From: Nemertoderma westbladi
Taxonomy: Eukaryota; Animalia; Xenacoelomorpha
Length of the DNA: 42,445 nt
Direction: 5' to 3'
NCBI GenBank assembly: GCA_032718475.1
Contig: JAUCBJ010007928.1
Location: 1-42,445 of the forward strand
The notes beneath the pieces were generated by a model. It ran no database searches. It worked only from the letters and a program-made list of their open reading frames with translations, and was not told the origin of the DNA. The stretch's first letter is position 1. Every line of letters starts with the position of its first letter. Below are positions 2,420 to 41,270 of this stretch, piece after piece. Made by a program: the position numbers and the translations under genes.

Positions 2420-5400
2420 ACAGGTAAAGGTAATAAATCTCGTTCAAACAGACGTAGAAGAGCGCCACACAGACATAAGTTGCCTAACTTACCCCATACG
2501 GGGAGAAGGGAGCTAGCTAATGTAAACTTAAGTAATAGAGAGTCAACAGACCAAATTATAAGAGTAGAAAGACTCCCTAATATAGTAGATGAGCCAGAAA
2601 TAATTAGGCCTGTTAGCGAAGCTACTCCTTTAATAGAGACCCCTTTGCTCCCAGAACCTAACCTTTACACAGTACCAAAACTACCTATGTCCAGTAGACA
2701 ACTGCCAGAATCTCAGACTGTTATTGACGCCGAGCAAGAGATAATAACCGAACTGTCCCCTGTCGTCCCGATATGCCATCCAGCTACGCTGTTGGCGACT
2801 CCTGCTTCCGCGGTTGAGTGGATGTAGGAAGGACGACGGGGGATGGATGAATTACTCGGGCAATTGGAGGAGAACAAAATACAGTCCTCTAAACAAGTCC
2901 AAGAATTGGAAGGGACTGTTCAACTGTTAAAGGGAACAGTAAGAGAGAGTAAATTAGAGCTGCAAGAAGTACAGCAGCATATCACTCTCGAATGCGATAA
3001 ATTAGTAAATATACAAATGGGTATACCACCACCCTCTGTAACAATGTGTCAGCCCATTAGCTCTGAAGTATTTCATGCGCAAGGTGTGGAGCCTACACGC
3101 ATCTATACTGCTAGTGAAGTAGAAACTCCTATAGTAAACCCTATTAAAAGTATTAATAAGCCTGTCGATAATGATATCCCATACCGATCTGATAATAATC
3201 CGAGAAATTTATATACCAATAATTTGATATTAAATAGTACGATGGCTCAAGAAAGCTTCACACGTCAGATGGCTAGAACGGAAGCCCGTCAAGCGGTAAA
3301 GGTGGGAGAGGTTGTCAAGTTTAATGGAGATGAGATGAAATGGTTACTTTTTAATGAATATTACAAGGATAACATACAAAACTCCGTGCTATCCAGCGGA
3401 GATAATTTGCGATTCCTCATCGAGTGCTTGGAAGGACCTCCCAAGATAATGGCGTTAAAGTTTATTGGACATCCGGACGGATTGAGACAAGTTAGGGATA
3501 CACTTAACATCACGTATGGTAATAGGACTAACATATCTAGATATCTGTATGCAAAATTAGAAGCGCCCAGAAAGTTTCTTAGCAGCGGGATTATAGAGTT
3601 TTCCGATGAGATTCAGGAGATCTGTAGACAGTTAAACTGGTTGGGTAAGTCTCATGAATACGAGAGTTCTATGGTTGTAGGAGCCGTAGCATCAACTTTG
3701 CCAAAGGGCGGAGTAGGTACTCGCTGGGACAAAAAGGTTCTCTATTTGATGGACCAACAACATAGAGATCCAACCATGGCTGACCTTATGTCGTTCTTAA
3801 ATGGAGAGGTAAGATTACAGCTCATAAAACAGTAACCAAGGTAAGTGAAAAACCCATTACTAGGAGAAAGGTAACACCAGTGTGTTATACGAATAATTAT
3901 GAAAGTCAAACGTTCATAACGAAAATAGTGGCAAAGACACCGAGACATCTTATTACACGAATAAGGTCAAGAAAGACGTAAGTAAATCTAAGGCTCGAAC
4001 CAGTGGCAAGAGAGAACAGATAACAACCCCCCCCCCCCCCCCCCCTACATCTCCCAAGAGAATTCATGGTAGGAAGCCCGAAGAAAGAGCTAGTGTACAA
4101 AATAACATGCAAGTTAAGGTAAGTAACATCAAATCTAAGTGTGTATTGTGCGACGGGCCACATCGCTTGAGTGGGTATGAGGAATTCTTGAAGAAAGAAC
4201 TAAAGGACAGACGTGATGTCATGTGGGATAAACGATTGTGTTATAATTGCCTCAGACGAGGACATCAAAGGAAAACCTGTTACTCAGACGTGAGGTGTGC
4301 TAAGTGTGGAGCGAAACATCATATCTTGCAACACACCGAGTTTGATAAGACTCGGACGAGTCCGGTAAGTGAGCCCAAACTAGATGTACAATTCAGTGAT
4401 GTAAACGACACTGACCATGGTTCGGAGATGGAAGGATTCTATATACATGAATTTTCCAACGAAAATGAATCTTGTTATATGATCAACACAACGGTATATC
4501 GAGCCCTTACATATGAGACCGAAACGGAGGGAGAAGAACACCAACTATCTATTCCAGATAGACAGCTTTCATGGAAAATTTCAACACAATCTGTCGGTAT
4601 CCGAGAGTTCCCAGTGGTACAACTGAGAGTACATGGAAAAGGGAAGAGCTTAATAGTGAATGCCCTCCTTGACTCCGGTAGTACAGGCACCTTTATTGAC
4701 AAGGACCTGGCCGAAGATATCTTTGCTGATCAACCAAAGTTCCGAACCAAACTGAACCTTTCCGGGATTATGCAGGTTTGGAAATCTACGGTATCCACAG
4801 ATTTTTATGTTGGATCATTGTCTACTCCCCAAGATGAACTAGGTGAGAACAGTATAAGGTCAGTTAAATGTTGACGATAAAGAACTTTGCTACTAGCCAA
4901 GTAGAGCGTTACAACTGGGATGAAGACCATTTTACCCAGCAATACAACATACCTAGATTCACTATAGATTACCCAGGTGTACAGATACTGCTCGGCCAGA
5001 ATGCGCACGAGGCACTTGAGACCCTAGAGAAACGGCCTGCTCGACCGCGACCACTACAGAGTAGGTTGGTATTTCACGGGACCTTCCCACAGGACTTTGC
5101 AGGAAAGATCTAAGGGAGAGCAAGTCCATCAGGTAAGGTAAGGTGAGGAAGTCGTGAGCAAAGAGGATATCCCAGCTGAGGAAACTCTATGCTCATCAGA
5201 CAACGACAACATCCAGACTCTATATGACGAGGAGAATACCATTGAACTCCTCACTGAGAATCAAACTTGGTCAAACCAAGTTAATTTGTGTAACCTTATC
5301 TGTCAAAACAACAGACTGTTGACATACGATGACGAACTCAATGAGGTAGTAGAGCGATATAATGATAAGATATGAGATGAACACGCGGTACGATTCTTTA

Positions 5401-5491
5401 CTCAAGAAGCTGTAGAGCCTAATTCCTACGACAAAGCATTATCCATCGAGGAAGAGAGAGCTAAGCAAATTCAGGAAATGACCACTCGTTA
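2420..5491 (+). pseudogene. Element A gag (capsid, 3 zinc knuckles) and aspartic protease, disrupted
   Basis: ORF pieces 2843-3835, 4107-4874, 4868-5113 and 5154-5375 parallel element B. Motifs CYNCLRRGHQRKTC, CAKCGAKHHILQH, ALLDSGS. Several stops and frameshifts. Confidence 0.92.
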
Positions 5492-6652
5492 TGTAAAAGC
5501 TTTTGTGGGATAACTGATTCGTTTGCCTTGTTAACCAGTTCCCCCCCAGGCGCTGAATACTCTAAAAGGGGATCTATAACTCGAATAGCGCAAGCTACCG
5601 GCTGATTGGCTGATTCGCTGTGCGAAGGGATCTGGGCTACGTTTGATTGTCCAACCAGCTTGGGAAAGTATCTGCCAATAGGATTTGAGTTGATTTTGAT
5701 TTCGACCTATCACAGATCTACTGAACTGAATTTTCCTATCTGTATGCTCTTTCTCTGTGTTGGGTGGAAGCCTTTGTAAATAAGGTTATTCTTATCAGTT
5801 TTCAGTGTTGTTGGTCTTTCTTTCCTAAGCCAGGAGAGAACGGCTTGGAAATATTTTGTGCCTTTCTGTTTTAATCTAACACTAGTAGGCTTAATTATAA
5901 GGACATATATCCGTTATCAAAACAAACCAAACAATCCATACCAAACTTAACACACACTGAATCACTGTGCATACTTTTATATTGTTATACTGCTATTTAC
6001 TGTCAGTTCTTCATAATATGGTTGATGAATTATTATATTTGGAATAACGATAAATAACCCCGAAACCCAATATTCTTGATATACCGAAGGTAAGAGAGAA
6101 AGGTTACATATAACGATTGTGACTTATGTTAAAGTGGTTTGAAGTGAATCTAATGTTATTTGATAGACCCTACATGAGTCGGTCCGTGTTCCTTTTATAT
6201 ATAACTAAAATCAGTGAAGATCGGCAGATCAGTGTGCAGTATTGTGCAGCATTGTGTATGAGTGAACCTGATAACGAAGCATTTCCTAAAGAATGCGCCA
6301 TATATGTGAATTATAACTAAGCCATATCGTTGTGAGTAGTTTAAGTCATAACTCTGTTTGTATAGATAGAGCGCCACGTCCTAAAGGAACTGTTAATATT
6401 CCCCGAAGGTGAATAATATTGTCAGAGATTATATAATACTGTCAGTCGAATAATACATTAGGCTTACATAGCAATAAGATTAAGCCGTCGAACCCAATCT
6501 CCCGGGTATATCCAGCGGGTGAATGATCGCGCACAGATTGGTTTCGACTAGTGTAGTGAATTAAATACTTGTCATAGACTAAAAGTGATTTATTATCTAG
6601 AAGACATTCTAATTTGGCGGGTTAAACTGCCAAAGGTCTGAAAGCGCGAACA
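5492..6652 (+). repeat. 5' LTR of element B
   Basis: TGTAAAAGC...GCGAACA; direct repeat of 20172-21332 with differences seen only at 6443 and 6646. Confidence 0.97.
6087..6095 (+). promoter_or_regulatory. Candidate splice donor inside the LTR (AAG|GTAAGA)
   Basis: Near-consensus 5' splice site, conserved as GAG|GTAAGC at 32509-32517 in the diverged LTR of A. Confidence 0.5.
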
Positions 6653-6663
6653 ATAACGGATAT
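6653..6663 (+). promoter_or_regulatory. Non-canonical primer-binding site complementary to LTR 5907-5917
   Basis: ATAACGGATAT directly follows the LTR-terminal CA. There is no TGG/tRNA-type PBS. It is the exact reverse complement of ATATCCGTTAT at 5907-5917. Confidence 0.55.
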
Positions 6664-6718
6664 TCTTCTTTATTGCAGTAAGCAATAAAGTTGAAAGTAC
6701 CGGTCAACCGGTAAACCT

Positions 6719-6850
6719 GAACGGTACATCTGTAGGTCAGTAGGCCCAACCGCCAGAACCGGTACTGCCGTAGGTCCGTAGGTCCAACTGCCAGAACCGG
6801 TACTTCTGTAGGTCCGTAGGCCCAACTGTCCTAACCGGTACTTCCGTATA
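6719..6850 (+). repeat. 38-bp tandem repeat (~3.5 copies) in the leader of B
   Basis: Unit ~AACCGGTACTKCYGTAGGTCCGTAGGYCCAACTGCCAG; AACCGGTA starts at 6757, 6795 and 6833. Confidence 0.9.
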
Positions 6851-7020
6851 AGTACACTAGTATTATTCGATTTGATTGTTGTATACCGGTAGGCTGTTTA
6901 AGAGATTAGGGACTGTGCACCCCTTGTTTCTTTTGGAGCTTACTTATTTCTGTCAGTTTTATTTATTTGTAGGCCAGTATTGAGCAGAAGGCGTGTAAGC
7001 CTGATCAGATTGTGCAGACA

Positions 7021-7591
7021 ATTTGTAGGTTGAACTGTTGTCTGATTGCTGTTAAGTCTGAACGGATTGCAGTGTGTGTAGGTCACCTGTCCGATAAAGA
7101 ACGGTTAGGAAGTAGGGGCAGCGAATGCTGTAAGGTAAACCCCCAACTAAAGAATAAGTCGTACTACTGGGTTAGAACGCATACTACCTAATCATTTCGG
7201 GGTCTGCATGTCCTGTAGTTTATTTAGGCTTGAGAGTAGTCTGCCATCGTTTAGTCTGTACTTTGTTTGTGTAAGTCTGTACGGGTAGCGTATAATATTT
7301 ATTTAGATAATTTGTAGGCTGGATAGTTGTCTGGCTGTTATTAGGTCTGAACGGATTGCAGCGTGTGTAGATCACTTGTCCGATAAAGAACGGTTAGGAA
7401 GTAGGGGCAGCGAATACTGTAAGGTAAACCCCCAACTAAAGAATAAGTCGTACTACTGGGTTAGAACGCATACTACCTAATCATTTCGGAGTCTGCATGT
7501 CCTGTAGTTTATTTAGGCTTGATAGTAGTCTGTCAGTGTTTGGTCTGCATTTTGTTTGAGTGGTTTGTACGCGTAGCGTAATATTTATTAT
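7021..7591 (+). repeat. 289-bp tandem duplication in the leader of B
   Basis: CGATAAAGAACGGTTAGGAAGTAGGGGCAGCG at 7092 and 7381; the copies are highly similar throughout. Confidence 0.92.
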
Positions 7592-8528
7592 TCAGAGTTT
7601 ATGCGATTATTCGCAACATTCATTCCCCAAGTTTGTTCCTACAATAATTGTGTTTGTTATACATACCGCTATAGTTAAATTAACCCCGGTACTACACGGG
7701 CTGCTTGGCGTAGGTAAAGACTGGTGATTTTGTGCATCGGTCACTCCAGCAGATGCCGTGGTTCTTTTAGCTGTTCAAGTATATTTAACTACTGATTATC
7801 TGTTGTACAAGTACTCGTACCTAATTTAGGGTTTAGTGTACAGTGCTTTCCGAGAGTAATTAGTGTAGGCATTATATTTGTGTTGTAAAGTGGTTGATAG
7901 GCACGTTCGATTAGCTCTATTAACTTCTAGGTAGGAACACTCCGTGATACATAACGTAGAACCTATAGCGATACGGCTAAAGGTCGTCAGGCGGTGGTAT
8001 TTTCCTATCTGGACAACGCAGTGTATTTACTACTACGTATTATTTTCAAATACCGCAGTACCCTGTCCGTTGTAATAACCAGATTTCTAACCCTTTGTTA
8101 GGCTGGTTTGTAGACTTCTTGTAAAATTACCCTGAAAATTCGTATTTTGTGTTTTTGTAAATTTTTGTGTTTATTTAGAGATTGTAATCTCACCCGAATT
8201 GTACGTAATTTGTAGTATTAAGTAACTTAGGTAAATTAGTATTATTTGTTTTAGTGTCCTATAAGTAACACTTCACTGAAAGCGCACCGCTTTGTGTAGT
8301 GATTACCCCTCAGAAATAATAACATTTATTTCAAACATTGACAAAACCCATTAAAACGGGTATATATATATTATAAATCAAATCTAACGATTTATAAATC
8401 GTAGGCCTACCATACAACCATTAGGTCTCAATATCAGTTGGATTACTGCTCAAATAACGGTAATAAAGTAAGTAAAGTAACAAAGTAACCCTAAAATTCA
8501 GTAATTTAATTATTTAAAATAATTGATA

Positions 8529-8821
8529 TACCGGTATTTACGATAGGCCTATTATCTTTATTTCTATAAATCTAGGCTGAAATTATACCGGTACTTGTAA
8601 TTAATTCTATTCCAGAATTATATATACTATAAACTGTAAGCTGTATACCGGTATTCCCGATAGGCCTATTATATATTTATATATATTTGTGCTAAAATTG
8701 TACCGGTATTCTGTGATAAACCTAGTCTGTAATAAAACTTATAATAGTTATATATACTATAAGCATACCGGTATTCTAATATATTATATATATCACGCTA
8801 CACTGAGTAGCAGTACCGGTA
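8529..8821. repeat. Degenerate ~58-bp repeat carrying six TACCGGTA palindromes
   Basis: TACCGGTA at 8529, 8586, 8646, 8701, 8766 and 8814 in AT-rich spacers. Confidence 0.8.
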
Positions 8822-8909
8822 ATTAATTACTAGGCTATCAGTTAATACTGAGTTACTAGACTTGCTCAGACTGTAATACAGCAGTAGACATTCAACTGTA
8901 CACATAAAC

Positions 8910-11900
8910 ATGTCTGATACTAAGCAGAACCTGTCAGACAGTTTATTAGATGTAACTATCTGCGACTCAGATAGAGGCGTAGAACCGTCTAGTCGTAAGT
9001 TCAGTTCACCTCCCACTGTGAGGAAGGTCATCCCTCCAGTAGTAATAACAGAACCTAGGCTGGTCCAACATCGTAGGTCTATCATAGGCACTCGAGCTCA
9101 GGTCAAGCGGTACCAAGAAGCAGCGGAACAGCAACAACCCGCGAGCCAAGAACTTACTTCTCAACGGCCCAACAGCTCCAGTAGTGAGGATACGGTAGAA
9201 CTGACACCAGAACGCGGAGCAAAGATGATGGATGCGGTTTATTCGGATCCCCTTCTCATCCTTCCTGCAGCCGTACTCACTAGGTTATTGATCGCTGTGG
9301 AAGAACACCAGATCGATTGGGCGAGAAGCCAGCGTTCAACTAGAGATAGTTATGCTGGATACACAAGGGAAGAACTGAAGTCCATGGTCGAGTCGCAATG
9401 GAACTTCCCCGGACCCGGACTCCCGTTTGATTTATCAGAAGCTGCCTGGGAAGACATACACCGGATGGGAGTAGCCAAGGAAACCATCGATCCCGCTGTG
9501 TGGAAGAGGTCCGCAGCCGGATACGCACAGGGATTCTTCAGCTCTATGGAGCGAGTAAAAGGACAACTGTTTCAACAACCACAAGGACCTCAAGAGCAGG
9601 GACAACTGCTTTATCAAGTGAGAGAAAGAATTCTACGAATCAGGCTAATATTATCGGCCTTTGAAGAGGCTTCTAAACGAAGGCAAGACACGTCGTTGCA
9701 AGTTGCCGTAAAGACTTGGTTTCAAAGGGTGAGTCGCCAGGTTCAAGGAGCAGCTCAGTGGAAAGCTCAATTGGAGGAGCGCTCAACCCATGGAGAATCA
9801 ACGGACGCTATTTCTTCCCAAGTGGAAAGTGAAGCGACGGCAGAGAAACCGCATAAGAGGGATGCCATTGACATCTATCTGTCAGACTATCAACGTTTTT
9901 TAGGTGATGACGAGTTGAGGAGAAGGTTAGAGGGACTTAGCCCTAATAGTGAAGGAACCAAGCTTGTGTTGGATGCCATCGATGTGGAAATGAGGGCTGC
10001 GAATCAGGCTAAATTTGATGAACAACTCCGCATCACACGAGTCCAGGAGGAGCAAGTAAAGAAAAAACGTATAGAAGACAGAAAGAAAGCAGCAGTGGTA
10101 GCTGCAGAAGCAGAAAGAAAAGCGGCAGCGGCAGAGGCAGCGGCAGAGGCAAAGGCGGCAGAGGCAGCGGCAGAGGCAAAGGCGGCAGCGGCAGTGGCAG
10201 AAGCAAAAGCGGCCGAAGCTGAAAGAAAGGCGGCAGAGGCAGCGGCAGAAGCAAAGGCGGCAGAGGCAGCGGCAGAGTCAAAGGTGGCAGCGGCAGCGGC
10301 AGAAGCAAAAGCGGCCGAAGCCGAAAGAAAGGCGGCAAAGGCAGTGGCAGAAGCAGAACGGAGAGCGACTGAAGAAATCACCCAATTAGAATTGGAAAAC
10401 ATTCAGGAGAATCAAGACTGCATAAATAAACAGTTAACAGCTAGTAATATGCAGATGATGAATCGATCTACTCCCAAAAGACAGGGATATACATCATCTG
10501 AGGAAGGCGATACCACCGATACTGAAGGCAAAGGAAATAGATCTCGTCTAAGCAGACGTAAAAGAACATTCCACCGTCAGAAATTGCCTGATTTGCCTCC
10601 AGCTGTTAGAAGGCAACTAAATAACACCAACTTAGGTAGTACAGAGCCCACAGACCAAATAATTAAAATAGAAAGACTCCCTACTATAGTAGATGAGCCT
10701 GAAATAATTAGGCCTGTTCTTGAAATCACCCCTTCGGTGATAGATACACCGGTGCTCCCTGAAACTACCTCTAAATTCCCTCTGCATAGCACTAAGCTAC
10801 CTGTGCCCCGTAGAACTGCCCAGGAGACAGTTCAGGTCCTGGACCCCGAGCGAAATATTCCTGATTTGTCGCCCGTTGTCCCTCGTCCGCTCGCTACAAC
10901 GTTGGCGACTCCCGCTTCGGCGGTCGAATGGGTGGACGAGAGACGGCGGGGGATGGATCTCCTGCTCGGGCAGATGCAGGAGACGGTTCAGCAATTCAAG
11001 GGCACAGTAAGGGAAAGTAGGCTTGAGTTGCAAGAAGTGCAGCAAAGTATCGCGCTAGAACGCGATAAATTAGTAAATACCCAAAAGGGTATACCACCAC
11101 CCTCTGTAACAATGTGTCAACCTGTTAGGTCTGAAGTATCGCATGCGCAAGGTGTGGAGCCTACACGCATCTATACTGCTAGTGAAGTAGAAACTCCTAT
11201 AGTGAACCCTATTAAGGGTAATTATAGACCTGTTGATAATGATATTCCATATAGAACTGATCATAATCCGAGAAATTTATATACCGATAACTCGATATTA
11301 AATAACACGATGGCCCAAGAAAGTTTTACGCGTCAAATGGCTAGAACCGAAGCCCGGCAAGCGGTAAAGGTGGGAGAGATCGTCAAGTTCAATGGAGATG
11401 AGATGAAATGGTTACCTTTTAATGAATATTACAAAGATAACATACAGAACTCTGTACTATCTAATGGAGAAAAACTTAGATACCTCATCGAGTGCTTGGA
11501 AGGATCTCCCAAGTTAATGGCGTTAAAGTTTATTGGACATCCAGACGGATTAAGACAAGTTTGGGATACACTAACTACTACTACTAGGATCGGCATGCTG
11601 CATTGCAGCTGCATTTTTAAGAATGCTGTGCCGGCTTGTCAACAAAATTGCAGCGGAATTATCGAGTTTTCCGATGAGATTCAGGAGATCTGTAGACAAT
11701 TAGATTGGCTAGGTAAGTCTCAGGAGTATCAGAATGCCATGGTTATTAGAGCAGTGGCTTCTACTTTACCGAAGGGTGGAGTAGGTACACGCTGGGATAA
11801 GAAAGTGTTATATATGATGGAACAACAACGACGAGACCCTACCATGGCTGATCTCATGTCCTTCCTAGATGGAGAAGTGAAATTACAGCTCCTGAAACTG

Positions 11901-14501
11901 TCCAGAGAGAAGACACCGGAAAACAAGGTAAGTGAAAAACCCGTCTCTAGGAGAAAGGTAACACCACTGTGTTATACAGACGACGGCGAAAGCCAGACTT
12001 CTCAAGGAGAAGATAGCGGGAAGGACACTGATAGATCTTATTACGTGAATAAAATGCCTAAAGATCAGGTAAGTAAATTCAAGTCTCGAACAAATGACAG
12101 GAGAGAACAGGTAAGAAAAACTCCTCCCATGTCTCCCAAGAGAATTCCGGTGAGAAAGCCCGAAGAAAAGGCAAGTGTACACAATGTGACTCAAAATAAG
12201 GTAAGTAACATCAAACCGAAATGTGCGCTGTGCGACGGGACCCACCGTTTGAATATGTGTGATGAATTCCTGAAGAAATCATTATCAGAGAGACGAGAAG
12301 TCATGTGGGATAAGCGGTTATGTTATAATTGCCTCAGACAAGGACACCAACGGCGAACCTGTTTCTCTGACATAAGGTGTGCAAAGTGTGGTGCGAAACA
12401 TCATATCTTGTTGCACGCTGAATTCGAGCGAAATAGTCCGAATCAGGTAAGTGATTCCGAACTACATGTCCAATTCAGTGATGTGAACGACACTGATCAA
12501 TCTGAGATGGAAGGATTCTATACGGACGAGTTCTCCGACGAAAACGAATCCTGTTATATGATAAATACCGCCGTGTATCGAGCACTCACCTATGAAAAGG
12601 ATACAGACAACGACTTCACTCTAACTACTTCTGAGCGACAACCATCTTGGAAAGAGCCATCTTCCAATGTAGGGATCCGAGAGTTTCCTGTGGTGCAAGT
12701 AAGGGTTCACGGACCTAAGAGGAGTTATGTAGTGAACGCCCTCCTTGACTCCGGTAGTACAGGAACATTCATCGACAAAGAGCTAGCCGAAGATATATTT
12801 GCTGGACAACCCAAGTTCCAAACTAAGCTCAACATGTCCGGCATTATGCAAGTTTGGAAATCTACAATAACAGCAGATTATTATGTAAGAGCGTTGTCCA
12901 CCCCCCAGGACGAACTAGGAGAACATAGCATAAGGTCAGTGAAAATGGTGGCTATAAAGAACTTCGTTACTACTCAAGCAGACCTTTATAATTGGGACGA
13001 GGATGAGAGCATCCAACATCTTAACATACCTCGATTCCAGACTGATTATCCTGGAGTGCAAATACTCATCGGCCAAAACGCGCATGAGGCGCTGGAGACA
13101 TTAGAGAAACGGCCTGCTCAACCGCAGCCACTACAGACCTATGCGGTAAGAACTAGAGTAGGTTGGTACTTTACTGGCCCTTCCCGTAGAACACTCAAAG
13201 AAAGACTACCGCAAGAGCGCGTCTGCCAGGTGAGTGAATGGGAAGATGATACTAGTGAAGGAGACGATTTAACTGAGGGAACTCCATACTCCTCAGATAA
13301 CGACGACGTTCACCAGCTTTTTGATGAGGAGAATACCATCGATCTCCTTAAGGAAAACGAGGCTTGGCAAAACCAAGTGAACTTATGTCAACTTCTCTAT
13401 CCATCTGAACGAGAAGCTTATAACGACGAGTTAAATGACGTCATTGAGCGTTGCAATGCCAAGACTCGAGATGAACATGCCGTAAGATTCTTTACGCAAG
13501 AGGCGGTAGAGCCCAATTCCTACGATAAAGCCTTATCGGTGGAAGAGGAAAGGGCCAAGCAGATCCAAGAGACAACTAAAAGTTTCCTCAAAGATCAAGG
13601 TAGGTATGAAGTCGGTCTACCTTTCCGCAAGAGAGAACCGAAGTTCATCAATAACAGACCCTTGGCGGAAAAAAGAATCGCGCAACTCCATCGACGCCTT
13701 ACGGCTAATTCTTCAGCTAAAGCAATGTATCAAACACAGCTGGAGAAATTTATTAGTAAGGGATACGCGGAGAGAGTACCGGAAGAAACACCTGTGACTG
13801 AAAGAACGTATTACTTAACTCACCATTACGTTCCTAAACCCGGTAAGCCACATGAAGTGAGAGTAGTGTTTGATGGCTCCGCTCTTTACATGGGTCAATC
13901 CCTTAACTCTGAATTGTTACCCGGACCCAACTTACTTCAATCTTTGTTGGGAATTCTTTTAAGATTGAGACAATATTCGATTGCTTTCGCCTCCGATATA
14001 GAAGGCATGTTCTTGCAAGTCAAAGTGTTGGATAGGGATCGAGATAGCTTACGATTTCTATGGTGGCCCGAAGGAGACCTCAACCAGAAACCGGTGGAGT
14101 ACTGGATGACCATCCAGGCCTTTGGGATAATCTCAAGCCCTTCCAACGCCTGTTCGGTAGTGCGTACCACTGCAGAGGACAACCGAGAGGCCTTCTCTAA
14201 GGAAGTGATCGACAACATCAAGAGAGACATATACATGGACGACAATCTGAAGTCCCTTCCATCAGTTGAGGAAGCCATTGAAGTCGCTAAAGGAATGGTA
14301 GAGTGCTTAAAAAGAGGTGGATTTCGATTAACCAAATTCACCAGCAACTCCCGTGAGTTTCTGGAGTCGATCCCTGCGGAAGATCGAGGAGCGAAAGATC
14401 TCGATTTGATCAAAGATGATCTGCCAGAAACCAAGACACTCGGCTTGAAATGGGACACAGAGCGAGATATCCTGTTTTTTCCAGCTAAAACAGCGAAATA
14501 A
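8910..14501 (+). CDS. Element B Gag-protease-reverse transcriptase polyprotein (1863 aa; cut short by an extra T at ~14475-14480)
   Basis: Capsid-like region, knuckles CALCDGTHRLNMC / CYNCLRQGHQRRTC / CAKCGAKHHILLH, ALLDSGS, RVVFDGS, DIEGMFLQV, YMDD, LGLKWD. Element A reads through the equivalent site with one T fewer. Confidence 0.95.
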   Translation: MSDTKQNLSDSLLDVTICDSDRGVEPSSRKFSSPPTVRKVIPPVVITEPRLVQHRRSIIGTRAQVKRYQEAAEQQQPASQELTSQRPNSSSSEDTVELTPERGAKMMDAVYSDPLLILPAAVLTRLLIAVEEHQIDWARSQRSTRDSYAGYTREELKSMVESQWNFPGPGLPFDLSEAAWEDIHRMGVAKETIDPAVWKRSAAGYAQGFFSSMERVKGQLFQQPQGPQEQGQLLYQVRERILRIRLILSAFEEASKRRQDTSLQVAVKTWFQRVSRQVQGAAQWKAQLEERSTHGESTDAISSQVESEATAEKPHKRDAIDIYLSDYQRFLGDDELRRRLEGLSPNSEGTKLVLDAIDVEMRAANQAKFDEQLRITRVQEEQVKKKRIEDRKKAAVVAAEAERKAAAAEAAAEAKAAEAAAEAKAAAAVAEAKAAEAERKAAEAAAEAKAAEAAAESKVAAAAAEAKAAEAERKAAKAVAEAERRATEEITQLELENIQENQDCINKQLTASNMQMMNRSTPKRQGYTSSEEGDTTDTEGKGNRSRLSRRKRTFHRQKLPDLPPAVRRQLNNTNLGSTEPTDQIIKIERLPTIVDEPEIIRPVLEITPSVIDTPVLPETTSKFPLHSTKLPVPRRTAQETVQVLDPERNIPDLSPVVPRPLATTLATPASAVEWVDERRRGMDLLLGQMQETVQQFKGTVRESRLELQEVQQSIALERDKLVNTQKGIPPPSVTMCQPVRSEVSHAQGVEPTRIYTASEVETPIVNPIKGNYRPVDNDIPYRTDHNPRNLYTDNSILNNTMAQESFTRQMARTEARQAVKVGEIVKFNGDEMKWLPFNEYYKDNIQNSVLSNGEKLRYLIECLEGSPKLMALKFIGHPDGLRQVWDTLTTTTRIGMLHCSCIFKNAVPACQQNCSGIIEFSDEIQEICRQLDWLGKSQEYQNAMVIRAVASTLPKGGVGTRWDKKVLYMMEQQRRDPTMADLMSFLDGEVKLQLLKLSREKTPENKVSEKPVSRRKVTPLCYTDDGESQTSQGEDSGKDTDRSYYVNKMPKDQVSKFKSRTNDRREQVRKTPPMSPKRIPVRKPEEKASVHNVTQNKVSNIKPKCALCDGTHRLNMCDEFLKKSLSERREVMWDKRLCYNCLRQGHQRRTCFSDIRCAKCGAKHHILLHAEFERNSPNQVSDSELHVQFSDVNDTDQSEMEGFYTDEFSDENESCYMINTAVYRALTYEKDTDNDFTLTTSERQPSWKEPSSNVGIREFPVVQVRVHGPKRSYVVNALLDSGSTGTFIDKELAEDIFAGQPKFQTKLNMSGIMQVWKSTITADYYVRALSTPQDELGEHSIRSVKMVAIKNFVTTQADLYNWDEDESIQHLNIPRFQTDYPGVQILIGQNAHEALETLEKRPAQPQPLQTYAVRTRVGWYFTGPSRRTLKERLPQERVCQVSEWEDDTSEGDDLTEGTPYSSDNDDVHQLFDEENTIDLLKENEAWQNQVNLCQLLYPSEREAYNDELNDVIERCNAKTRDEHAVRFFTQEAVEPNSYDKALSVEEERAKQIQETTKSFLKDQGRYEVGLPFRKREPKFINNRPLAEKRIAQLHRRLTANSSAKAMYQTQLEKFISKGYAERVPEETPVTERTYYLTHHYVPKPGKPHEVRVVFDGSALYMGQSLNSELLPGPNLLQSLLGILLRLRQYSIAFASDIEGMFLQVKVLDRDRDSLRFLWWPEGDLNQKPVEYWMTIQAFGIISSPSNACSVVRTTAEDNREAFSKEVIDNIKRDIYMDDNLKSLPSVEEAIEVAKGMVECLKRGGFRLTKFTSNSREFLESIPAEDRGAKDLDLIKDDLPETKTLGLKWDTERDILFFPAKTAK
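10090..10365 (+). repeat. Coding minisatellite in Gag (AAAEAKAAE-type, predicted helical/coiled coil)
   Basis: Iterated GCGGCAGAGGCA/AAGGCGGCA units translating to Ala/Glu/Lys repeats. Confidence 0.85.
11574..11652 (-). mobile_element. ~78-bp 3' end of the RTE-like LINE inserted antisense in B gag
   Basis: The reverse complement matches 29487-29562 exactly, with a (TAG)n tail one unit longer. Absent from element A at 3504-3583. Confidence 0.95.
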
Positions 14502-14556
14502 TCCAGTTCGAACCAAACGGATTTGCTTAAGTATACTGAGCACTTATTTCGATCCA

Positions 14557-16791
14557 TTGGGATTTATTAGCCCAGTTATATTGATTGCTCGTAGTTTGGT
14601 ACAACAAATGTGGCTTGAAAACCACTCATGGGACGATCCACTTAAGGGAGAATTATTGAAGAAGTGGATGAAATGGGAAGATTCTCTGCCAGCTATCGAG
14701 GATTTTATAATTTCCCGTTCATATTTTGGTCATGTTCTCCCTACGTATTCCTATCAACTCCATGTGTTTGGAGACGCCAGCGATATGGGAATAGGTATAG
14801 TAGCCTATCTAAGAGTGGAAACTCCGGATGGAATCAAAGTCGCCTTGGTTACTTCTAAGGCATTAATCAACAACAAGTTGAAAGTTCCTCGAGCGGAGTT
14901 AAAAGCGGCTCTATACGCTACAGCCATCGGCCGGAATGTAACAGAACAGATTGACTATCCATTAGAGAAAACTGTCTATTGGACCGACGCTTTACTCGTG
15001 TTAGAGTATATAACCAATGAAGTCTGTCAGTTCAGCGTCTTCGTTACCAACAGGGTAGCCATCATACTTAGTCGCACGACGATGGACCAATGGAGACATT
15101 GCCCCGGAACGATTAATCCAGCAGACATCGCTTCCCGAGGAGCGACTCCAAAGGAATTGGTAAATACTCCCGAGTGGTTAGGTGGACCTGACTTTCTCTA
15201 CAGAGAAGAAGAAGAATGGCCTCCCCATCTCACAACAGCAGAGATCAGACAGGCCAAGGGAGCGGAGAAAGTTAAACCCAAAACTCGAGCGAGTAAATCG
15301 AAGTTGTTTAAACCTGCGGTTGATCTATCTGTATTATTTACTTCCGGAGAGGATGCTTTGGATCAGAAACCCACCGCCACGACTAAAGAAGTCTTGGAAA
15401 TCCGTGACAAGGATTGGAAATCTGGAATACCAGATATCGCACAAGGACTCTCACCCCTCTTGCAGAGAGCGATATGTCACTACAGTTCCTGGAATCGGCT
15501 CTGCAAAGCCGTCACCTATTTAAAACGATGTTTTCATCATCGTTACTCCGGGACAAAGACCAATGGTGATGATGCTCCATCAACATCTGCACGAGTCCAT
15601 GTTGTTAAAGACCTTCCCCAATACAAGATATCCGACAGGTTTCTAAAGGAGAAGATCAGTTACCAGGAGCATGATGAAACCAACAAACAGATGCTGAGAC
15701 TCCTACAATGCTATGAGGATCCTGATAAGTATTTCCTGTTGTTAAGAAATCCGCAGATGCGCTTAAGGGATCGCTTCTCTAGTACCATGATAGATGGGTT
15801 AATACGTGTTGGAGGCAGGCTCACCAACGCCCCCTTATCCTTTGACACTAAGTTTCCCATACTCATTAGAAATCTTGACATACAAATCAAGATGATTGTA
15901 GATGTTCATAGCAAACTGTACCATGCTGGTAGAGAACGAGTTCTGAGCGAAATTCGAACTCGCTACTATTTTTATAAACCCCGTAGGGCTCTGAACCAAG
16001 TTCTTAGGAACTGCATACCCTGTAGGAAAGCATTCAGTAGGCCTTTAACACAGCGAGAGGCAGAATTACCTAGGGAAAGAGTAAGCTTCTATGAACCACC
16101 CTTTACTAATACCGGTGTGGATTTATTTGGCCCTATTGAAGTATATCGTGCCCGGACTATAGTCAAGAGATGGTGTGTCATCTTCGTTTGTATGACTTGT
16201 AGAGCTATCCATCTCGATATGGTAAACGATCTATCCACCAACAGCTTCGTGTTGAGTTTACGACGACAGATCGCTCGCTTCGGAACCAGTAACACGATGA
16301 GATCGGATAAGGGAACGAACTTCATTGGCGCCAACAACGAAATTCAAGCTTACGTAAAGGACTGGAACAAAAGACAGGTGGACGATCAGCTAAGGATAAC
16401 AGCGTCTAGCTGGACCTTCAACGCCGCCGACGCCCCTTGGTGGGGAGGAAGTTGGGAGAGATTGATTAGGAGCGTGAAGACTGCGTTCCACTTTATTGTA
16501 CCTTGTCGCGCTTATCTCACCGACGAACTATTGCGGACGTTAATGGAGGAAATCGCCGCCTATCTCAACGAAAGACCGCTTATGCCAGTCTCTTCAAATC
16601 CTGATTCTCTGGAAGCGCTAACACCCGCGCACTTTCTACTGAAGAAGCCCGTAGCCATGCTCCCACGATCGGAGATCACAGACGGAGACGAGTACTGCCG
16701 TCGAACCTGGCAACTTATGCAGTTGCTATCCCGTCGTTTCGCTGACAAATTTCGAGAAACATTACCTGCCCACTCTACAACTTCGAACTAA
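14557..16791 (+). CDS. Element B RNase H and integrase (continuation of pol; frameshifted at ~16750)
   Basis: RNase H: FGDAS, PRAEL, WTD, NPADIASRG. Integrase: HSKLYH...CIPC, GVDLFGP, SDKGTNF, WERL. Confidence 0.95.
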   Translation: MGFISPVILIARSLVQQMWLENHSWDDPLKGELLKKWMKWEDSLPAIEDFIISRSYFGHVLPTYSYQLHVFGDASDMGIGIVAYLRVETPDGIKVALVTSKALINNKLKVPRAELKAALYATAIGRNVTEQIDYPLEKTVYWTDALLVLEYITNEVCQFSVFVTNRVAIILSRTTMDQWRHCPGTINPADIASRGATPKELVNTPEWLGGPDFLYREEEEWPPHLTTAEIRQAKGAEKVKPKTRASKSKLFKPAVDLSVLFTSGEDALDQKPTATTKEVLEIRDKDWKSGIPDIAQGLSPLLQRAICHYSSWNRLCKAVTYLKRCFHHRYSGTKTNGDDAPSTSARVHVVKDLPQYKISDRFLKEKISYQEHDETNKQMLRLLQCYEDPDKYFLLLRNPQMRLRDRFSSTMIDGLIRVGGRLTNAPLSFDTKFPILIRNLDIQIKMIVDVHSKLYHAGRERVLSEIRTRYYFYKPRRALNQVLRNCIPCRKAFSRPLTQREAELPRERVSFYEPPFTNTGVDLFGPIEVYRARTIVKRWCVIFVCMTCRAIHLDMVNDLSTNSFVLSLRRQIARFGTSNTMRSDKGTNFIGANNEIQAYVKDWNKRQVDDQLRITASSWTFNAADAPWWGGSWERLIRSVKTAFHFIVPCRAYLTDELLRTLMEEIAAYLNERPLMPVSSNPDSLEALTPAHFLLKKPVAMLPRSEITDGDEYCRRTWQLMQLLSRRFADKFRETLPAHSTTSN

Positions 16792-17119
16792 GTGGTTTGC
16801 GCAGCAAGAAAACGTCAGCGCTGGAGACATGGTGCTTATTGTGGACCCCGATCTCCCACGTAAGCGATGGCAAACAGGACGTATCATCGAGACTCATATC
16901 TCGAGCGATGGTTTGGTGCGATCAGTAGAGCTCGTCGTAATGCGACGTAACTTTAAGAAACCAGGGATAGTCTTTGAGACTCAACAGCTCAATCGCCCAG
17001 TGGGTCGTTTATGTTTACTGGAAAGAGACAGAGAGCTCTCCGGAAACTATGGAAGGCAAGAAACTCTTCCCACGACCACTTCCCTAATCCAACCGACATC
17101 TAGGGACTCCCCAACTTAA
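16753..17119 (+). CDS. C-terminal integrase domain of B pol
   Basis: Removing one T at ~16750 restores EKHYLPTLQLRTKW...GDMVLIVDPDLPRKRWQTGRI...DGLVRSV, as in A (24520-24880). Confidence 0.85.
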
Positions 17120-17329
17120 TGTCGTTCGGAGTGGGCGTGTGACTCTATTATTTTATATTATTTTATTATTTTTATATTTATGTATGTATTACTATGTAAT
17201 TTTATTATAATCGTTTTATTTAATTTAGTAGAATATTATTTAGTGATTATTTAGTAGAATAGTGCAATATGTTCGTGTTCATTGCGTACGTAATTACTTA
17301 TATTATATTTAGTGCGACGGCGAGAAATA

Positions 17330-18686
17330 ATTCTTTTTCTCTTTCCTTACTGTCCGTATTATATTATAAATACGTAACTACAGTAAGATGAAATGTCCGT
17401 ACTTATTAAAGTACAATAAAGCCACTACTATATTTAAGTATTATTGGTAGGCAGAGTATTAGGAATGCAAAGTTCAGATCCTCGTGTCTCGGCTAAACCA
17501 AGCTCTGGGTAGACCTTGGAAACGACTTGCCTCTTCACACTGACATTGCTTCGTGCGATATTGCTCTCATACCGTATATTAAATAATACATATAGTAGCG
17601 TGATGTCCCTTTAACCGTAGCGTATAACGCAAAATAAATCTGTTAAACCCTTTGACCATCTGTAATTCTAGTCGATTAAGATATCGCGGCACCCACCGAT
17701 ATACTTGAAAGACAAATTCTAGAATCAGTGGTTAACGTCCCCAGACAAGTTCTGGAATAAATCGGTGCCCATCTTAAATATTAATTATTTAATATTTGCA
17801 AATCTAATAAGTCAAAATCTGTAAAATTCAGATCCTTCAACAATTCTAGTCAATTAAGATATCGTAGCATTTACCGATATTCTTAAAAGGACAATTTTCA
17901 TAGAGTTAAGGATCTTGTGTCCCCAGACATATTCTAGAATCAAAATATGTCCATCTAATTAGTAAATAATAAAATTTCAGGGAATAATTTAAATTCATGC
18001 CTTTTAATGAATTTAATAAATTGCCATTTTTGCGCAATTTATAACATTCCCAAAATTCCATTAATTAATAGATCAAGGGAGCGGAGATTTATCTTATTAT
18101 GCATATGAGTGTGCGAAAGTCTCCCAAACATAGTCAATAGCCGATAAAATTCATAAAGTCATGTATAAAACAGAGCATTGACTATTAAAGAATACTATTA
18201 AATAACATCCCAGATCTGTATGCATTGGAATTACCCTAATTCTACCGCTAGCTTTGCATAATGTCACCATAGCAACAACCACGCTAGAATTAGAATTGAG
18301 TTAAAAGAACAATAGAAAGCTTGTCCCATTGAATAGCATAGGGAATAAATAGCGCACTACTAGTATCCAAGGATACATAATAATACAGTGACATTCTGGA
18401 AGGCATTGACTAAAGGACAAATGGCCCGAATGTGCGTAGTTGTGACCAGTTGTGTGGTATTTGTGAGTTTATAGGTGAATGTTACTGCTAAAGTGTGTTT
18501 ACAGTAGCTAGTCGCAATCGTAAAAGTAACCTAACTCTCCAAGGAAAACCTGAAGTACATCTAAGCCTTTGGGACGGACAGTCGAGTGACTTGTGCCGGT
18601 TGTCGTTGTCGTTGTGCGGCTACGTCGTTGGCGAAAGTACAGCGGCGACGACACATCGGCGCTGAGGATCTCGTACTGTCCGGGGG
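17330..18686 (+). other. Conserved structured non-coding region between pol and the extra-ORF cassette (paralogue 25100-26607)
   Basis: High A/B similarity without a shared ORF. Several hairpins keep their stems while loops vary. Repeated AAATCTGTTAAA-headed units. Confidence 0.65.
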
Positions 18687-19886
18687 TTGATTGGGGTAGG
18701 CAGCGACGCCCGCTCGCCTAAATATAAACTCATTATAATATGGATAAACTCATATATAGCAGATATGACGGAGTTGATAGAAGATGGTCTTGGTATCGGG
18801 GAGCGATATACTCTACTTTTACAAGCGTTTGTTGATAGCTTAATACGCGGCGACGTTAGTCCAACTGCTGCGGAGGACGATGGTCGTTATATCGAACCGC
18901 CAATGTCCCAAGAGCAGCTCGCGCGAGTTGGACTATAGAAAATTCGCTGCTCGATATACGCAGCGTAATGGTACGTATATGGGCTTTTTAACTACTGATC
19001 ATCCTATCGATTTACACAATACGGACTATGTCGACTATATATCCTGCCCAGCGGAGTCGGAACCATAAACTGAAATTTGAATGCGAAAATTCTATTCGAA
19101 ATCGGCTCGAAAGAAAAGACATTAAAGAAACAAATAAACGCGGTAACTCCAGCATATATTTGGAATTCTTGATAGAAGCATTGTAACAACAAATAAATAT
19201 CATCCGCGTTTCCCCTACCAGACGTGCGTCTTTGGTATTATTACGGTAAATGCCCTAGACCCAGCCAATAAACGGAAAGACATAAACATCCACGGAAACG
19301 TTGTGTTAAACACAGTTGTGTTCGTTATATTTACTGGAGTTTCGAGCGAAACTTGTTTGACGTATCACCTATGCTCACTCGGCTCTAACGATCCTAGAGT
19401 AAACCTACGATCAGAGTCCCGGAATACTCGGTCAAACCTCCTCATTCCTTAGTTGGACCTCAGACCTGCGATCCTGGTGGTGTCGCGGATCCTCGCGGAC
19501 GGTATTCACTGTTCAAGATCTAGTGCTACCCTAACAATTAATCGGTAACACTCCGGCAGTGATTTCTAGCTAGCCGCCCATCTTTCCTAGCCGGATTATG
19601 ACGCAGACACCTAATATCACTATCCAACCGTATGGTCGTCCCATTTAACGCGATACAACCCTTCATCAAGGTGAAGGAGAGCGTTGTACGAAACGAGTTA
19701 AACGCTATTCTATAAAGATCAAAAAAGAAACCTGCGTTTGTTCAGATAAACGTAAGTTATAACAGTAAGTCCAATCGATAAACGAATTGGCCTTATCTCA
19801 GTTCGATTGGGAAACCTCGAATCTCAAAGAAGATATCAAGCTTAGAAAACCCTATTCTCTGCGAGAGTTTTGGACGAACGTATCCC

Positions 19887-20093
19887 ATGACAAGCGGAGG
19901 AAAATCAGCTCGAGGAGGAGCATATCGAAATGGACGAGACACCGACCGTAAACCCAAACCTTCTAATGCAATCATATTGCACCCTTCACCCAGGAGTTAT
20001 GGCCCTCCTAGTAAAGTGGCTCCCCCCAAAGAGAAAAAGACTCTGGCTAACTTTAAAAAACTGCGTAAACGCCGTCCGCGCAAGAAAGACTAA
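19887..20093 (+). pseudogene. Remnant C-terminus of the extra ORF in B (basic NLS-like tail)
   Basis: KPKPSNAIILHPSPRSYGPPSKVAPPKEKKTLANFKKLRKRRPRKKD aligns with the end of ORF 30009-31895. Confidence 0.75.
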
Positions 20094-20163
20094 CTGTTTA
20101 GAGTATTTATGTATATTAGAAATTGTGATTTTGTATATTTTATAGACTTAAATCCCATTTTCT

Positions 20164-20171
20164 GGGAGCGG
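20164..20171 (+). promoter_or_regulatory. Short polypurine tract of B
   Basis: GGGAGCGG abuts the TG of the 3' LTR. The same site in A is altered (TAAATATTTGCGG). Confidence 0.65.
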
Positions 20172-21332
20172 TGTAAAAGCTTTTGTGGGATAACTGATTC
20201 GTTTGCCTTGTTAACCAGTTCCCCCCCAGGCGCTGAATACTCTAAAAGGGGATCTATAACTCGAATAGCGCAAGCTACCGGCTGATTGGCTGATTCGCTG
20301 TGCGAAGGGATCTGGGCTACGTTTGATTGTCCAACCAGCTTGGGAAAGTATCTGCCAATAGGATTTGAGTTGATTTTGATTTCGACCTATCACAGATCTA
20401 CTGAACTGAATTTTCCTATCTGTATGCTCTTTCTCTGTGTTGGGTGGAAGCCTTTGTAAATAAGGTTATTCTTATCAGTTTTCAGTGTTGTTGGTCTTTC
20501 TTTCCTAAGCCAGGAGAGAACGGCTTGGAAATATTTTGTGCCTTTCTGTTTTAATCTAACACTAGTAGGCTTAATTATAAGGACATATATCCGTTATCAA
20601 AACAAACCAAACAATCCATACCAAACTTAACACACACTGAATCACTGTGCATACTTTTATATTGTTATACTGCTATTTACTGTCAGTTCTTCATAATATG
20701 GTTGATGAATTATTATATTTGGAATAACGATAAATAACCCCGAAACCCAATATTCTTGATATACCGAAGGTAAGAGAGAAAGGTTACATATAACGATTGT
20801 GACTTATGTTAAAGTGGTTTGAAGTGAATCTAATGTTATTTGATAGACCCTACATGAGTCGGTCCGTGTTCCTTTTATATATAACTAAAATCAGTGAAGA
20901 TCGGCAGATCAGTGTGCAGTATTGTGCAGCATTGTGTATGAGTGAACCTGATAACGAAGCATTTCCTAAAGAATGCGCCATATATGTGAATTATAACTAA
21001 GCCATATCGTTGTGAGTAGTTTAAGTCATAACTCTGTTTGTATAGATAGAGCGCCACGTCCTAAAGGAACTGTTAATATTCCCCGAAGGTGAATAATATT
21101 GTCAGAGATTATATAATACTGTGAGTCGAATAATACATTAGGCTTACATAGCAATAAGATTAAGCCGTCGAACCCAATCTCCCGGGTATATCCAGCGGGT
21201 GAATGATCGCGCACAGATTGGTTTCGACTAGTGTAGTGAATTAAATACTTGTCATAGACTAAAAGTGATTTATTATCTAGAAGACATTCTAATTTGGCGG
21301 GTTAAACTGCCAAAGGTCTGAAAGCACGAACA
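20172..21332 (+). repeat. 3' LTR of element B
   Basis: Direct repeat of 5492-6652, followed by TSD CGTTA. Confidence 0.97.
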
Positions 21333-21337
21333 CGTTA

Positions 21338-29563: not shown

Positions 29564-30008
29564 ATGGTACCCGTAATCCAGTAGGCCTAATCTATTCTGT
29601 CTGTCTGTAGGGCTAGGCAGCTAGGGCTACTGCAGTACTGCAAATTTCGATTACCGCAAATTACCGGTCAGCCGGTATGTGATAGCAATACTGAAATATG
29701 CCTTGCCTACCTCTACCAGAGGCTGTACTGTACGTACATCAGTGTACAGGGGATATAAGGCCAACGTCACTAGTGCCTAGCAACCAGTCCAGCTGTGCGT
29801 TGAGATATAAATTGGCAATAATAGTGGCATTATACGGACATTTTGAAAATAATTTTTATACAAACTGAAGTAGAATTACCTTGGGTTTCCGATTTGGACT
29901 GTGTTTGACAAAATTGGTTAACATTTGGACTGTGTTTGATTGTGTTTGGGTGTGTTTGGTTGTGTTTGATTGTGTGCTTAATTTCCAACTATCCGTATAG
30001 ATGGATCT

Positions 30009-31979: not shown

Positions 31980-33074
31980 TGTAAAAGCTTTTGCGGACAT
32001 AACAAGTCATTTTTATGCAATGCACTGAATACTCTAAAAAAGGCCTAAAATTGTTCAACTACGCGTCGGTCAGAAATTAGAACCAAGATGACGAAATCTG
32101 TCAGCTGATTCTTTGTGTACGTGGAGGTTTCTTTGTTTGGGCCTATTCAGCCAATTAGAGCAATCTTCCCAGTTATGCCAATAGAGACCTACCTGTGGAA
32201 ATTGGCGCATGCGCAGTTATAGTTTTTCTGAGAATCCTATTCCTTTCGGGAATCAGTACTAAGTACAGACGTTTCAGACTTTGGCCCAAGAATATCTGAT
32301 GGCTGGAGTTATAAGAACGTAAATCTATTAACTGAACATCGGCACAAACCGCACCTTATCATACTGAACTTCATGAACACATACTGACTGTTCACCGCAC
32401 TGTTTTAATGCTGTTTTATATTGTTGTTAATTGCTGTTTATATTAATGGATGTTATATTTGGAGAATACAGATAAATAATCGTAAACCCCTCAAGTTTCT
32501 TAATTACTGAGGTAAGCAGAAGGGTCTACCGGTAGCAACTGCGACTCAAATTATAGTGGTTTTTGTGTGGATTAAATGCTATTTCATAATCCCTAAGTGT
32601 GTCAGTTGCAATCCTCCTTATATATGATCAGAATCAGTGACGGTCGGCAAATTAGTGTGAATTAGTGTGGAGTAGTGTGAAGTCGTGTGAAGGTTAATAA
32701 AGCAACTCCTAAAGAATGTGCTATTTACGAGATTCCATAGCCATCTAGTTGTGATTAGTGTAAGTCATAACTCTGTTTTATACTTAAAGCGCCACGTCCA
32801 AAAGGAACTGTTAATATTTCCCCGAAAGTAAATATAGTTGTTGGAGATTATATAGTAGCGATCAATCGAATAATACAAAGTAGCCTACACCGCAATAACT
32901 TTCTCTGGACCCGAATCCAGTCTCCCACACAGTGGGTCATACGCCGTGCACGGACTGGCTTCGGCGGATGTAAATTCAATACACTAGGTAATTGGTAAGG
33001 GCAAAAGTCGATTTATAATTAAAAGGACATTTAAATTGGCAGGTTAACTGCTAAAAGGTCTAAAAGCGCGAACA
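31980..33074 (+). repeat. 3' LTR of element A (1095 bp)
   Basis: TGTAAAAGCTTTTG...AAAGCGCGAACA, same termini as the B LTRs. The 3' two-thirds is alignable and the first ~330 bp is largely diverged. Confidence 0.93.
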
Positions 33075-36000: not shown

Positions 36001-36694
36001 TTTTCAAAGTCGCTGATAACGATACAACTCGTTAAAAATAATTCGTGGTAACGCAACTATCGTTTTTGGTGTTTGTCTGCTGGGACGAAAAATGAAAAAT
36101 ACAAGTAGCATAAAATTTCAAACGGCAAAAATCTAATTTGGTTGGATAATACAATATTCATGAGTGTCATATTCGTGATCAGCATCCCAGAAAACCCATA
36201 ATGTCATAAAATGTGTGCTAAGACTTGTAATTTTCGTGCCGCACATTGACATTGACACGTATCCAAAGAAGCTTTTTATCAACAAGTTAGGATACTTTTT
36301 CAGGGTCATATTCGTGATCAGCATCCCAAAAAACCTACATGGTCATAAAATCAATTTGTTTTCGTGGTGATTTTTTATTATCATATTTCCACTACTTGTT
36401 TTGTTTTTTTCGTTCTCCAGGGGCACAAATAACTGACTAATAACTAACATAACAACATGCCTATGTTGTTATATTACACAACTCTTCGATATGTTTGATG
36501 TAGAGGAATAAACCTTCCCAATGAAATCAGCACATTCTAAAACCTCAGTAGCAAAATTGTATGGCCAATTTACCACTTTTGAAAAAAGTGCTACTTGCAC
36601 TTTTGGTGCTCTTTTAGTATCTATTGATAAATGATGCTTCTAATCTTGCTTTCGATTACTAATAATGAATTAAACTAAACAAAAAAGCATAGTA
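33075..36694. mobile_element. Old non-autonomous TIR DNA transposon whose left TIR was the target of element A
   Basis: 33075-~33279 is an imperfect inverted repeat of ~36508-36687. Internal motif GGTTTT..GCTGATCACGA occurs at ~34529, 35830 and 35999 and inverted at ~36166 and 36305. Superfamily and exact end uncertain. Confidence 0.65.
34631..35783 (+). mobile_element. Helentron-associated / DINE-1-like non-autonomous element
   Basis: Sub-terminal IR AGCAAGTCGT (34634) / ACGACTTGCT (35748), partial 5' IR CAAGTC-GACTTG, (GCTACTG)n microsatellite 34671-34720, 3' hairpin ACGGGCC-GCTA-GGCCCGT (35760-35777), inserted at a TT site without TSD. Confidence 0.72.
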
Positions 36695-41085: not shown

Positions 41086-41113
41086 CATTTGTTTGTTTGA
41101 GTTCTTTTCATAA

Positions 41114-41270
41114 TAGTATTAAAACTATTTATCCATAACAATTATATTAGTATTAGGACTATTTATCCATAACATTTATATTAGTATTAGGATTACTTAT
41201 CCCTAATTATTATATTAGTATTATAAATGTATTTGCCAACAATATTTATTACTATTAGGTCTATTTATTC
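41114..41270 (+). repeat. 34-bp tandem repeat (~4.5 copies)
   Basis: TAGTATTAGGACTATTTATCCATAACAWTTATAT-like units start at 41114, 41148, 41182, 41216 and 41250. Confidence 0.85.

Follow-up and report, generated by a model that had tools for sequence, protein, structure and literature searches.

How does a BEL/Pao retrotransposon of Nemertoderma westbladi prime reverse transcription? A candidate self-primer in its LTR

Animals have three main LTR superfamilies, among them BEL/Pao, which is formally described as tRNA-primed (PMC8742986). We analysed a stretch of 42,445 nucleotides from Nemertoderma westbladi (GCA_032718475.1, contig JAUCBJ010007928.1), here called the window, which contains an element whose 5′ LTR is followed by a segment complementary to that LTR. 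This raises the question of what primes reverse transcription in this element. A preliminary description of the locus had suggested self-priming, and had stated that BEL/Pao elements are regarded as tRNA-primed. The latter agrees with the ICTV account of Belpaoviridae, which gives an 18-nt primer site served by tRNA-Arg or tRNA-Gly, a genome of 4.2–10 kb and LTRs of 0.2–1.2 kb (PMC8742986).

Self-comparison of the window revealed two nested LTR elements. Element B (5492–21332, 15.8 kb) is inserted in an older related element, A (Table 1). B inserted recently, because its two LTRs differ at only 2 positions, have TG...CA ends and are flanked by the CGTTA duplication; it is a young element. These ends, the duplication and the purine tract are found in BEL/Pao elements, and so is the gag-protease-RT-RNase H-integrase order with BEL-type domains. 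Pfam matched, in this order, DUF1759, RVT_1 (weak, E 0.0025), Peptidase_A17, Integrase_H2C2 and DUF5641, with pol spread over three reading frames. PF05380 is present in nearly all of the 82 protein matches to B, whose closest protein relatives show only about 37–49% identity. Three acidic residues of the RNase H region, D109, E150 and D180, do not vary in alignment A1, which includes B, and we take them to be the catalytic residues. No chromodomain was matched in B by Pfam, and B lacks the chromovirus reverse transcriptase of Ty3/gypsy joined to a chromodomain integrase that defines the Tf1/sushi group. Judged by its protein domains, B is a BEL/Pao retrotransposon. It shares with the Belpaoviridae of the ICTV the gag-PR-RT-RH-IN order, the BEL-specific Pfam families and an LTR within the size range, but differs in its length and in having no tRNA site (PMC8742986).

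Table 1. Features of elements A and B in the window
Feature	Position	Strand	Remark
Target-site duplication CGTTA, left copy	5487..5491	+	inside element A
Target-site duplication CGTTA, right copy	21333..21337	+	
5′ LTR of B	5492..6652	+	1161 bp, TG...CA ends, terminal ...GAACA
3′ LTR of B	20172..21332	+	2 differences from 5′ LTR
TATAA, possible TATA box	5896..5900	+	conserved in A at 32310; would place the start near 5924 (presumed spacing)
Candidate self-primer ATATCCGTTAT	5907..5917	+	near U3/R-like boundary
Splice-donor-like GTAAGA inside LTR	6090..6095	+	conserved in A; 3′ of primer; contiguous match outscores all junctions
6-nt segment complementary to 6664-6669	6599..6604	+	could form a pretzel-type duplex; disrupted in variants
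U5 hairpin, 8 bp	6613..6634	+	7-bp hairpin predicted at same place in A (33036-33054)
Primer-binding position ATAACGGATAT	6653..6663	+	adjoins CA of 5′ LTR; without TGG
Leader hairpin, perfect 9 bp	6668..6690	+	family contigs: no listed substitution; one-base deletion at 6669 in a few
ORF, 1874 aa	8877..14501	+	Gag (DUF1759, Cys/His knuckles), protease motif LLDSG, reverse transcriptase (YMDD)
ORF, 780 aa	14449..16791	+	Peptidase_A17 (BEL RNase H region) and Integrase_H2C2; frame differs from upstream ORF
ORF with DUF5641 (pol end)	16655..17119	+	frame changes again
Purine-rich tract GGGAGCGG, short	20164..20171	+	before 3′ LTR of B
3′ LTR of older element A	31980..33074	+	5′ LTR of A precedes window
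A's site homologous to self-primer, AAATCTATTAA	32321..32331	+	7/11 identical to B

As the preliminary description had reported, 6653–6663 is the exact reverse complement of LTR positions 5907–5917, no TGG follows the LTR end at 6652, and 5917 pairs with 6653, the first base past the LTR (offset 0). Since the 3′ end at 5917 faces this base, extension would begin on the last base of the LTR. The match is exactly 11 bp long and cannot be extended at either end, and the complement of 6653–6663 occurs only at 5907–5917 and in the 3′ LTR copy (20587–20597). When the LTR was shuffled with its dinucleotides preserved, the exact 11-mer appeared in 14 of 20,000 shuffles (0.07%), and under a looser definition, 10 bp at any offset from 0 to 5, 185 of 20,000 (about 1%) qualified. 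Outside the LTRs, 19 of the 38,977 11-mers of the window have a complement in the LTR; these 19 include that at 6653 itself and another at 6860, within the leader of B. The 11-bp complement is unlikely to be due to chance. B thus has what typifies Tf1, a site complementary to an LTR segment of at least 10 bases (11 of 11 at offset 0). The 18-nt tRNA primer-binding site of the ICTV description was not found in B, and neither B nor the family variants listed carry the TGG. A tRNA encoded by the element itself was rejected as the primer: no tRNA gene was found in the window and no Rfam match in 5400–9000.

RNA folding predictions agree with the pairing. The 11-bp helix is present in the minimum-energy and centroid folds of 5907–6760, and its inner pairs have predicted probabilities of 0.86–1.0 when the RNA starts at 5895, 5902 or 5907. 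Eight pairs remain (probability about 0.8) with a predicted RNA starting at 5910, and the helix has a predicted probability of 0.0 for starts at 5850 and 5492. Two flanking structures had also been proposed: seven further pairs between 5897–5903 and 6667–6673, one of them G-U, and a competing 9-bp hairpin at 6668–6690. The hairpin forms with a probability of about 1.0. The seven pairs are possible as an isolated duplex, but have a probability of 0.0 in the folds because the hairpin forms instead; as this leader hairpin outcompetes them, we discarded them as part of the primer duplex. A pretzel of three duplexes is described for Tf1 (available part of 10.1101/2022.12.06.519325). The predicted counterparts in B are the central duplex, the U5 hairpin and a 6-bp flank duplex between 6599–6604 and 6664–6669. 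Family substitutions at 6664 and 6665 disrupt the last of these, and no change that would compensate for them is listed.

The best reading is that B probably primes reverse transcription with its own RNA, like Tf1. By analogy with Tf1, the transcript would begin at 5907 or slightly upstream of it. For RNAs that begin at about 5895–5910, 5907–5917 is predicted to fold onto 6653–6663, and this helix would close R-U5 into one domain beside the U5 hairpin and the leader hairpin. The RNase H of the element would then cut between 5917 and 5918, and the reverse transcriptase would elongate the 3′ end so formed by copying template base 6652, both as in Tf1, so that the minus strand would begin with the complement of the CA of the LTR. 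The primer would be one stretch in B, and in most of the relatives examined it would be put together at an LTR splice junction. The earlier suggestion of self-priming is thus strengthened by the rarity of the match, the predicted fold, family variants without TGG, the pairing in 9 of 16 relatives and the comparison of two of these (L082 and L085); the 7-bp extension does not support it, and the site in A fits poorly.

Several known systems resemble B. Tf1 and Tf2 of Schizosaccharomyces pombe, Tj1, Tosmo1-3 and the Tf1/sushi group likewise have no tRNA site, and an 11-base LTR segment complements the site after the CA of their 5′ LTR. B differs from these systems in its BEL/Pao domains, in the lack of a detected chromodomain and in its 1161-bp LTR. 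It also differs from them in the about 735 nt between primer and site, in a three-duplex pretzel that is not conserved in its family, and in having no evident TATA box 30 nt before the primer. By its domains B falls outside the Tf1/sushi group; in its priming it most likely works as these elements do. The preliminary description had assigned self-priming to chromovirus-type Ty3/gypsy elements. This is right for the Tf1/sushi group, for which the mechanism is described, but self-priming is not confined to chromoviruses, because it is predicted for the plant Ty1/copia TAR elements; a prediction exists for Tcn1 as well (available parts of PMC6317226 and PMC4600332). TAR elements (Houba, Osr-1) and Tcn1 of plants are predicted to self-prime because at least 10 bp are complementary to a segment that begins 0–5 bp past the 5′ LTR (PMC6317226, in the part available), a feature that B shares; they belong to other superfamilies and hosts, and there too self-priming is a prediction only. 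The titles and beginnings of abstracts listed in literature searches contained no report of self-priming in BEL/Pao, although subscription papers, Repbase/GyDB notes and supplements could contain one. A term search of the available text of three BEL/Pao surveys (PMC3118150, PMC554778, PMC6238403) returned no mention of a PBS or tRNA, and the accessible parts of PMC13524379, PMC6934838, PMC3601003 and PMC3286476 hold nothing on self-priming in BEL/Pao.

Comparison with the LTR of A bears on where the transcript starts. It had been stated that the A and B LTRs switch from unalignable to alignable at the primer. The switch is real but modest: identity in 40-column windows is 0.23–0.42 over 5572–5890 and 0.47–0.62 over 5871–6041. 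Identity climbs to about 0.55 near 5890. The self-primer lies about 12 nt inside the rise point, and the BLAST alignment of the two LTRs begins only at 6033. Both copies have T-A at about 5907, presumably an initiator-like motif, and no conserved TATA about 30 nt upstream of 5907 was seen in the A/B comparison. In the Tosmo elements of fission yeast, the block of U3 divergence ends 9 bp from the U3-R junction (available part of 10.1101/2022.12.06.519325). The site in A homologous to the self-primer, previously put at about 32324–32334, actually lies at 32321–32331. Its predicted pairing with the primer site of B has an energy of −2.6 kcal/mol, against −12.0 kcal/mol for B's own pairing. Base 32331 of A is an A, the partner required by a 6653 A>T variant in the family of B; base 32327 fits neither B nor a 6657 C>A variant, and 32322 is mismatched.

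The TATAA at 5896–5900 had been called conserved, and it was indeed found in A. A CA follows 28 nt after it in both B (5923–5924) and A (32337–32338), and the two motifs together fit a transcript start past the primer. The promoter is thus the chief weak point of the self-priming reading. The complement would then be due to chance or a relic, transcription would start near 5924 from the TATAA, and some other RNA would prime. This explanation, which also draws on the poor partner in A and on the shuffles that pass the looser definition, is unlikely. The match at the exact offset is far rarer in shuffles and also falls at the U3/R-like boundary, and the same pairing is found in relatives far above controls (see below). 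In Tf2, furthermore, a downstream start omits the primer and an upstream start gives competent RNA (PMC5341516, in the part available). Since Tf2 has both starts, self-priming would be compatible even with evidence of a downstream start, and both could coexist.

We also searched for the pairing in distant BEL/Pao relatives. RT scans retrieved 79 metagenome loci and 10 genome loci. The 3′ end of the 5′ LTR was fixed by a direct repeat in 19 loci, and the other 70 were without a usable LTR end. Near-duplicates (L009, L052 and L053) and a second LTR pair of L086 that does not flank the RT were dropped, which left 16 relatives. Perfect pairing was scored at offsets 0–3, either contiguous or across a GT-AG intron, and the same rule was applied to 960 control windows; the splice rule was chosen after the first pairing results were seen. 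For 13 loci with only an LTR start, scanning for the best LTR end is circular, and they were kept out of the counts. Self-pairing of at least 10 bases (10–15) was found in 9 of the 16 relatives, as against 2 of the 960 control windows; these nine represent about six independent groups. The remaining 7 relatives were below 10 bp. TGG is absent after the LTR in 14 of 16. L024 is the sole contiguous self-pairer, and the other eight (L003, L008, L010, L058, L078, L082, L085 and L086) pair across a predicted GT-AG intron of 71–451 nt inside the LTR. L082 and L085 are 79% identical, and between them two bases before the aligned donor and their two partner bases in the primer site differ, which amounts to two compensatory changes. 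At the level of sequence, self-pairing is thus a common signature among BEL/Pao elements. A quick RT tree, whose labels clustered no more than in shuffles, was used just to show that B is distant; in it B forms a long branch (1.39) outside all other 86 rows; because of this position, the relatives support the phenomenon and not its inheritance by B. No relatives were found in viral contigs by protein scans.

Two relatives carry a TGG just after the LTR. L075 (843-865) does not self-pair and lies among self-pairing elements in the quick tree; its site resembles one for tRNA-Tyr and may be such a site. L073 (56-75) pairs too, across a junction whose donor is non-canonical. The BEL/Pao RT query also matched ten contigs (L080–L089) assigned to bacterial metagenome-assembled genomes. 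Several of them have intact LTR pairs, and they are likely animal DNA binned into these genomes.

The relatives suggest another way to read the pairing. In eight of the nine self-pairing relatives the partner exists only after the predicted splice, and the LTR keeps its intron, so that primer and template could be different molecules. The distance from TATA-like motifs to the primer start is also not constant among the relatives. The pairing would then be real and selected without being a cis 5′-end primer: it could be an internal or in-trans primer from a second RNA, or a packaging or dimer switch. We consider this improbable, as the register in B ends exactly at the LTR boundary, 11 bp is the length used by Tf1 (PMC7175516, in the part available), and the predicted fold works only for RNA starts close to 5907. 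Returning to priming by the element's own RNA, the chances seem to us about even that it is widespread in BEL/Pao in two builds, contiguous in the family of B and in L024 and with an intron-spliced LTR primer in eight relatives. The abundant family of B would then represent the contiguous build on a deep branch, with joint changes of primer and site among its subfamilies, and the Tf1 solution would have been reached independently.

Copies of the family of B were examined in sequencing runs, six of which contain part of B; no RNA run is listed among them, which says nothing about expression. Contigs of X1–X4, from three studies, were aligned to 6590–6705; X1 and X2 derive from the same sample, and the window itself possibly comes from one of them. 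No substitution is listed in 6590–6652. At the primer site, 6653 A>T makes up 49, 32 and 34%, and 6657 C>A 43, 39 and 49%, of summed contig depth in the DNA runs X1, X2 and X3, where depth does not equal copy number. Substitutions 6664 T>A and 6665 C>G are likewise listed, and further primer-site types are joined to the same leader hairpin among the loose ends listed (22 of 70). A normal TGG site in other copies, which the preliminary description had counted as evidence against self-priming, was looked for, and none of these 22 starts with TGG after the LTR. One of the four primer-site changes predicted from A is present (6653 A>T); 6657 changes to A and not to T, and none is listed at 6658 or 6662, but the positions are unlinked and A-type copies are possibly absent. 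The LTR of A itself belongs to a high-copy, variable family in the aligned contigs, and 32321–32331 has no entry among the 40 of 253 rows listed for it. The family of B is abundant and young. Variability at the first base of the primer site would fit an element-borne primer better than one fixed tRNA. Priming by a host tRNA fragment of the half-tRNA type, known for several Ty1/copia lineages (available part of PMC6317226), or by another small host RNA, with the LTR complement incidental, is very unlikely, because several different tRNA pieces would be needed for a family in which large shares of the contigs differ at the first and fifth site base, with more types among the listed loose ends; the searches for tRNA genes and Rfam matches described above also speak against it.

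If B self-primes, the mechanism would occur in a third superfamily, probably with more than one origin. Such an element would not depend on the host tRNA supply, and would lack the site used by 3′ tRNA fragments to silence LTR elements (PMC12853362, in the part available). LTR finders that need a tRNA site would also overlook or mislabel it. If self-priming is widespread, tRNA would play no part in the replication of a large share of a superfamily that is described as tRNA-primed.

Other observations concern the LTR of B and the rest of the window. In addition to the GTAAGA in Table 1, splice-donor- or acceptor-like motifs are present at 6332, 6409 and 6365, downstream of the primer. The part of the LTR most conserved relative to A is at about 6320–6420 (85–88%), and a short conserved exon may be flanked by introns within the LTR. 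A splice-made primer was considered for B and rejected, since it scored below the contiguous match even with junctions and G-U pairs allowed. Searches of metagenome and viral contigs with a conserved LTR motif gave 0 matches.

Between pol and the 3′ LTR, element A carries an additional ORF of 637 aa (29982–31895, +) with a Cys/His-rich part. Pfam gave no match above threshold for it (zf-CCHC_3, E 0.35), and B matches only residues 588–625, at 19941–20054 (74%). A also contains an insertion (26693–29994) with terminal inverted repeats of about 340 bp around an RT frame at 27849–29522 (RVT_1, weak DUF6451). A 77-nt stretch of the gag of B (11576–11652) is present as an exact inverted copy at 29487–29563, inside this insertion. 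Another element (33075–36687) has imperfect inverted ends of about 200 bp and starts at the first base past the 3′ LTR of A. Finally, 40300–42445 consists of arrays with 9-nt and 27-nt periods and a strong GC skew.
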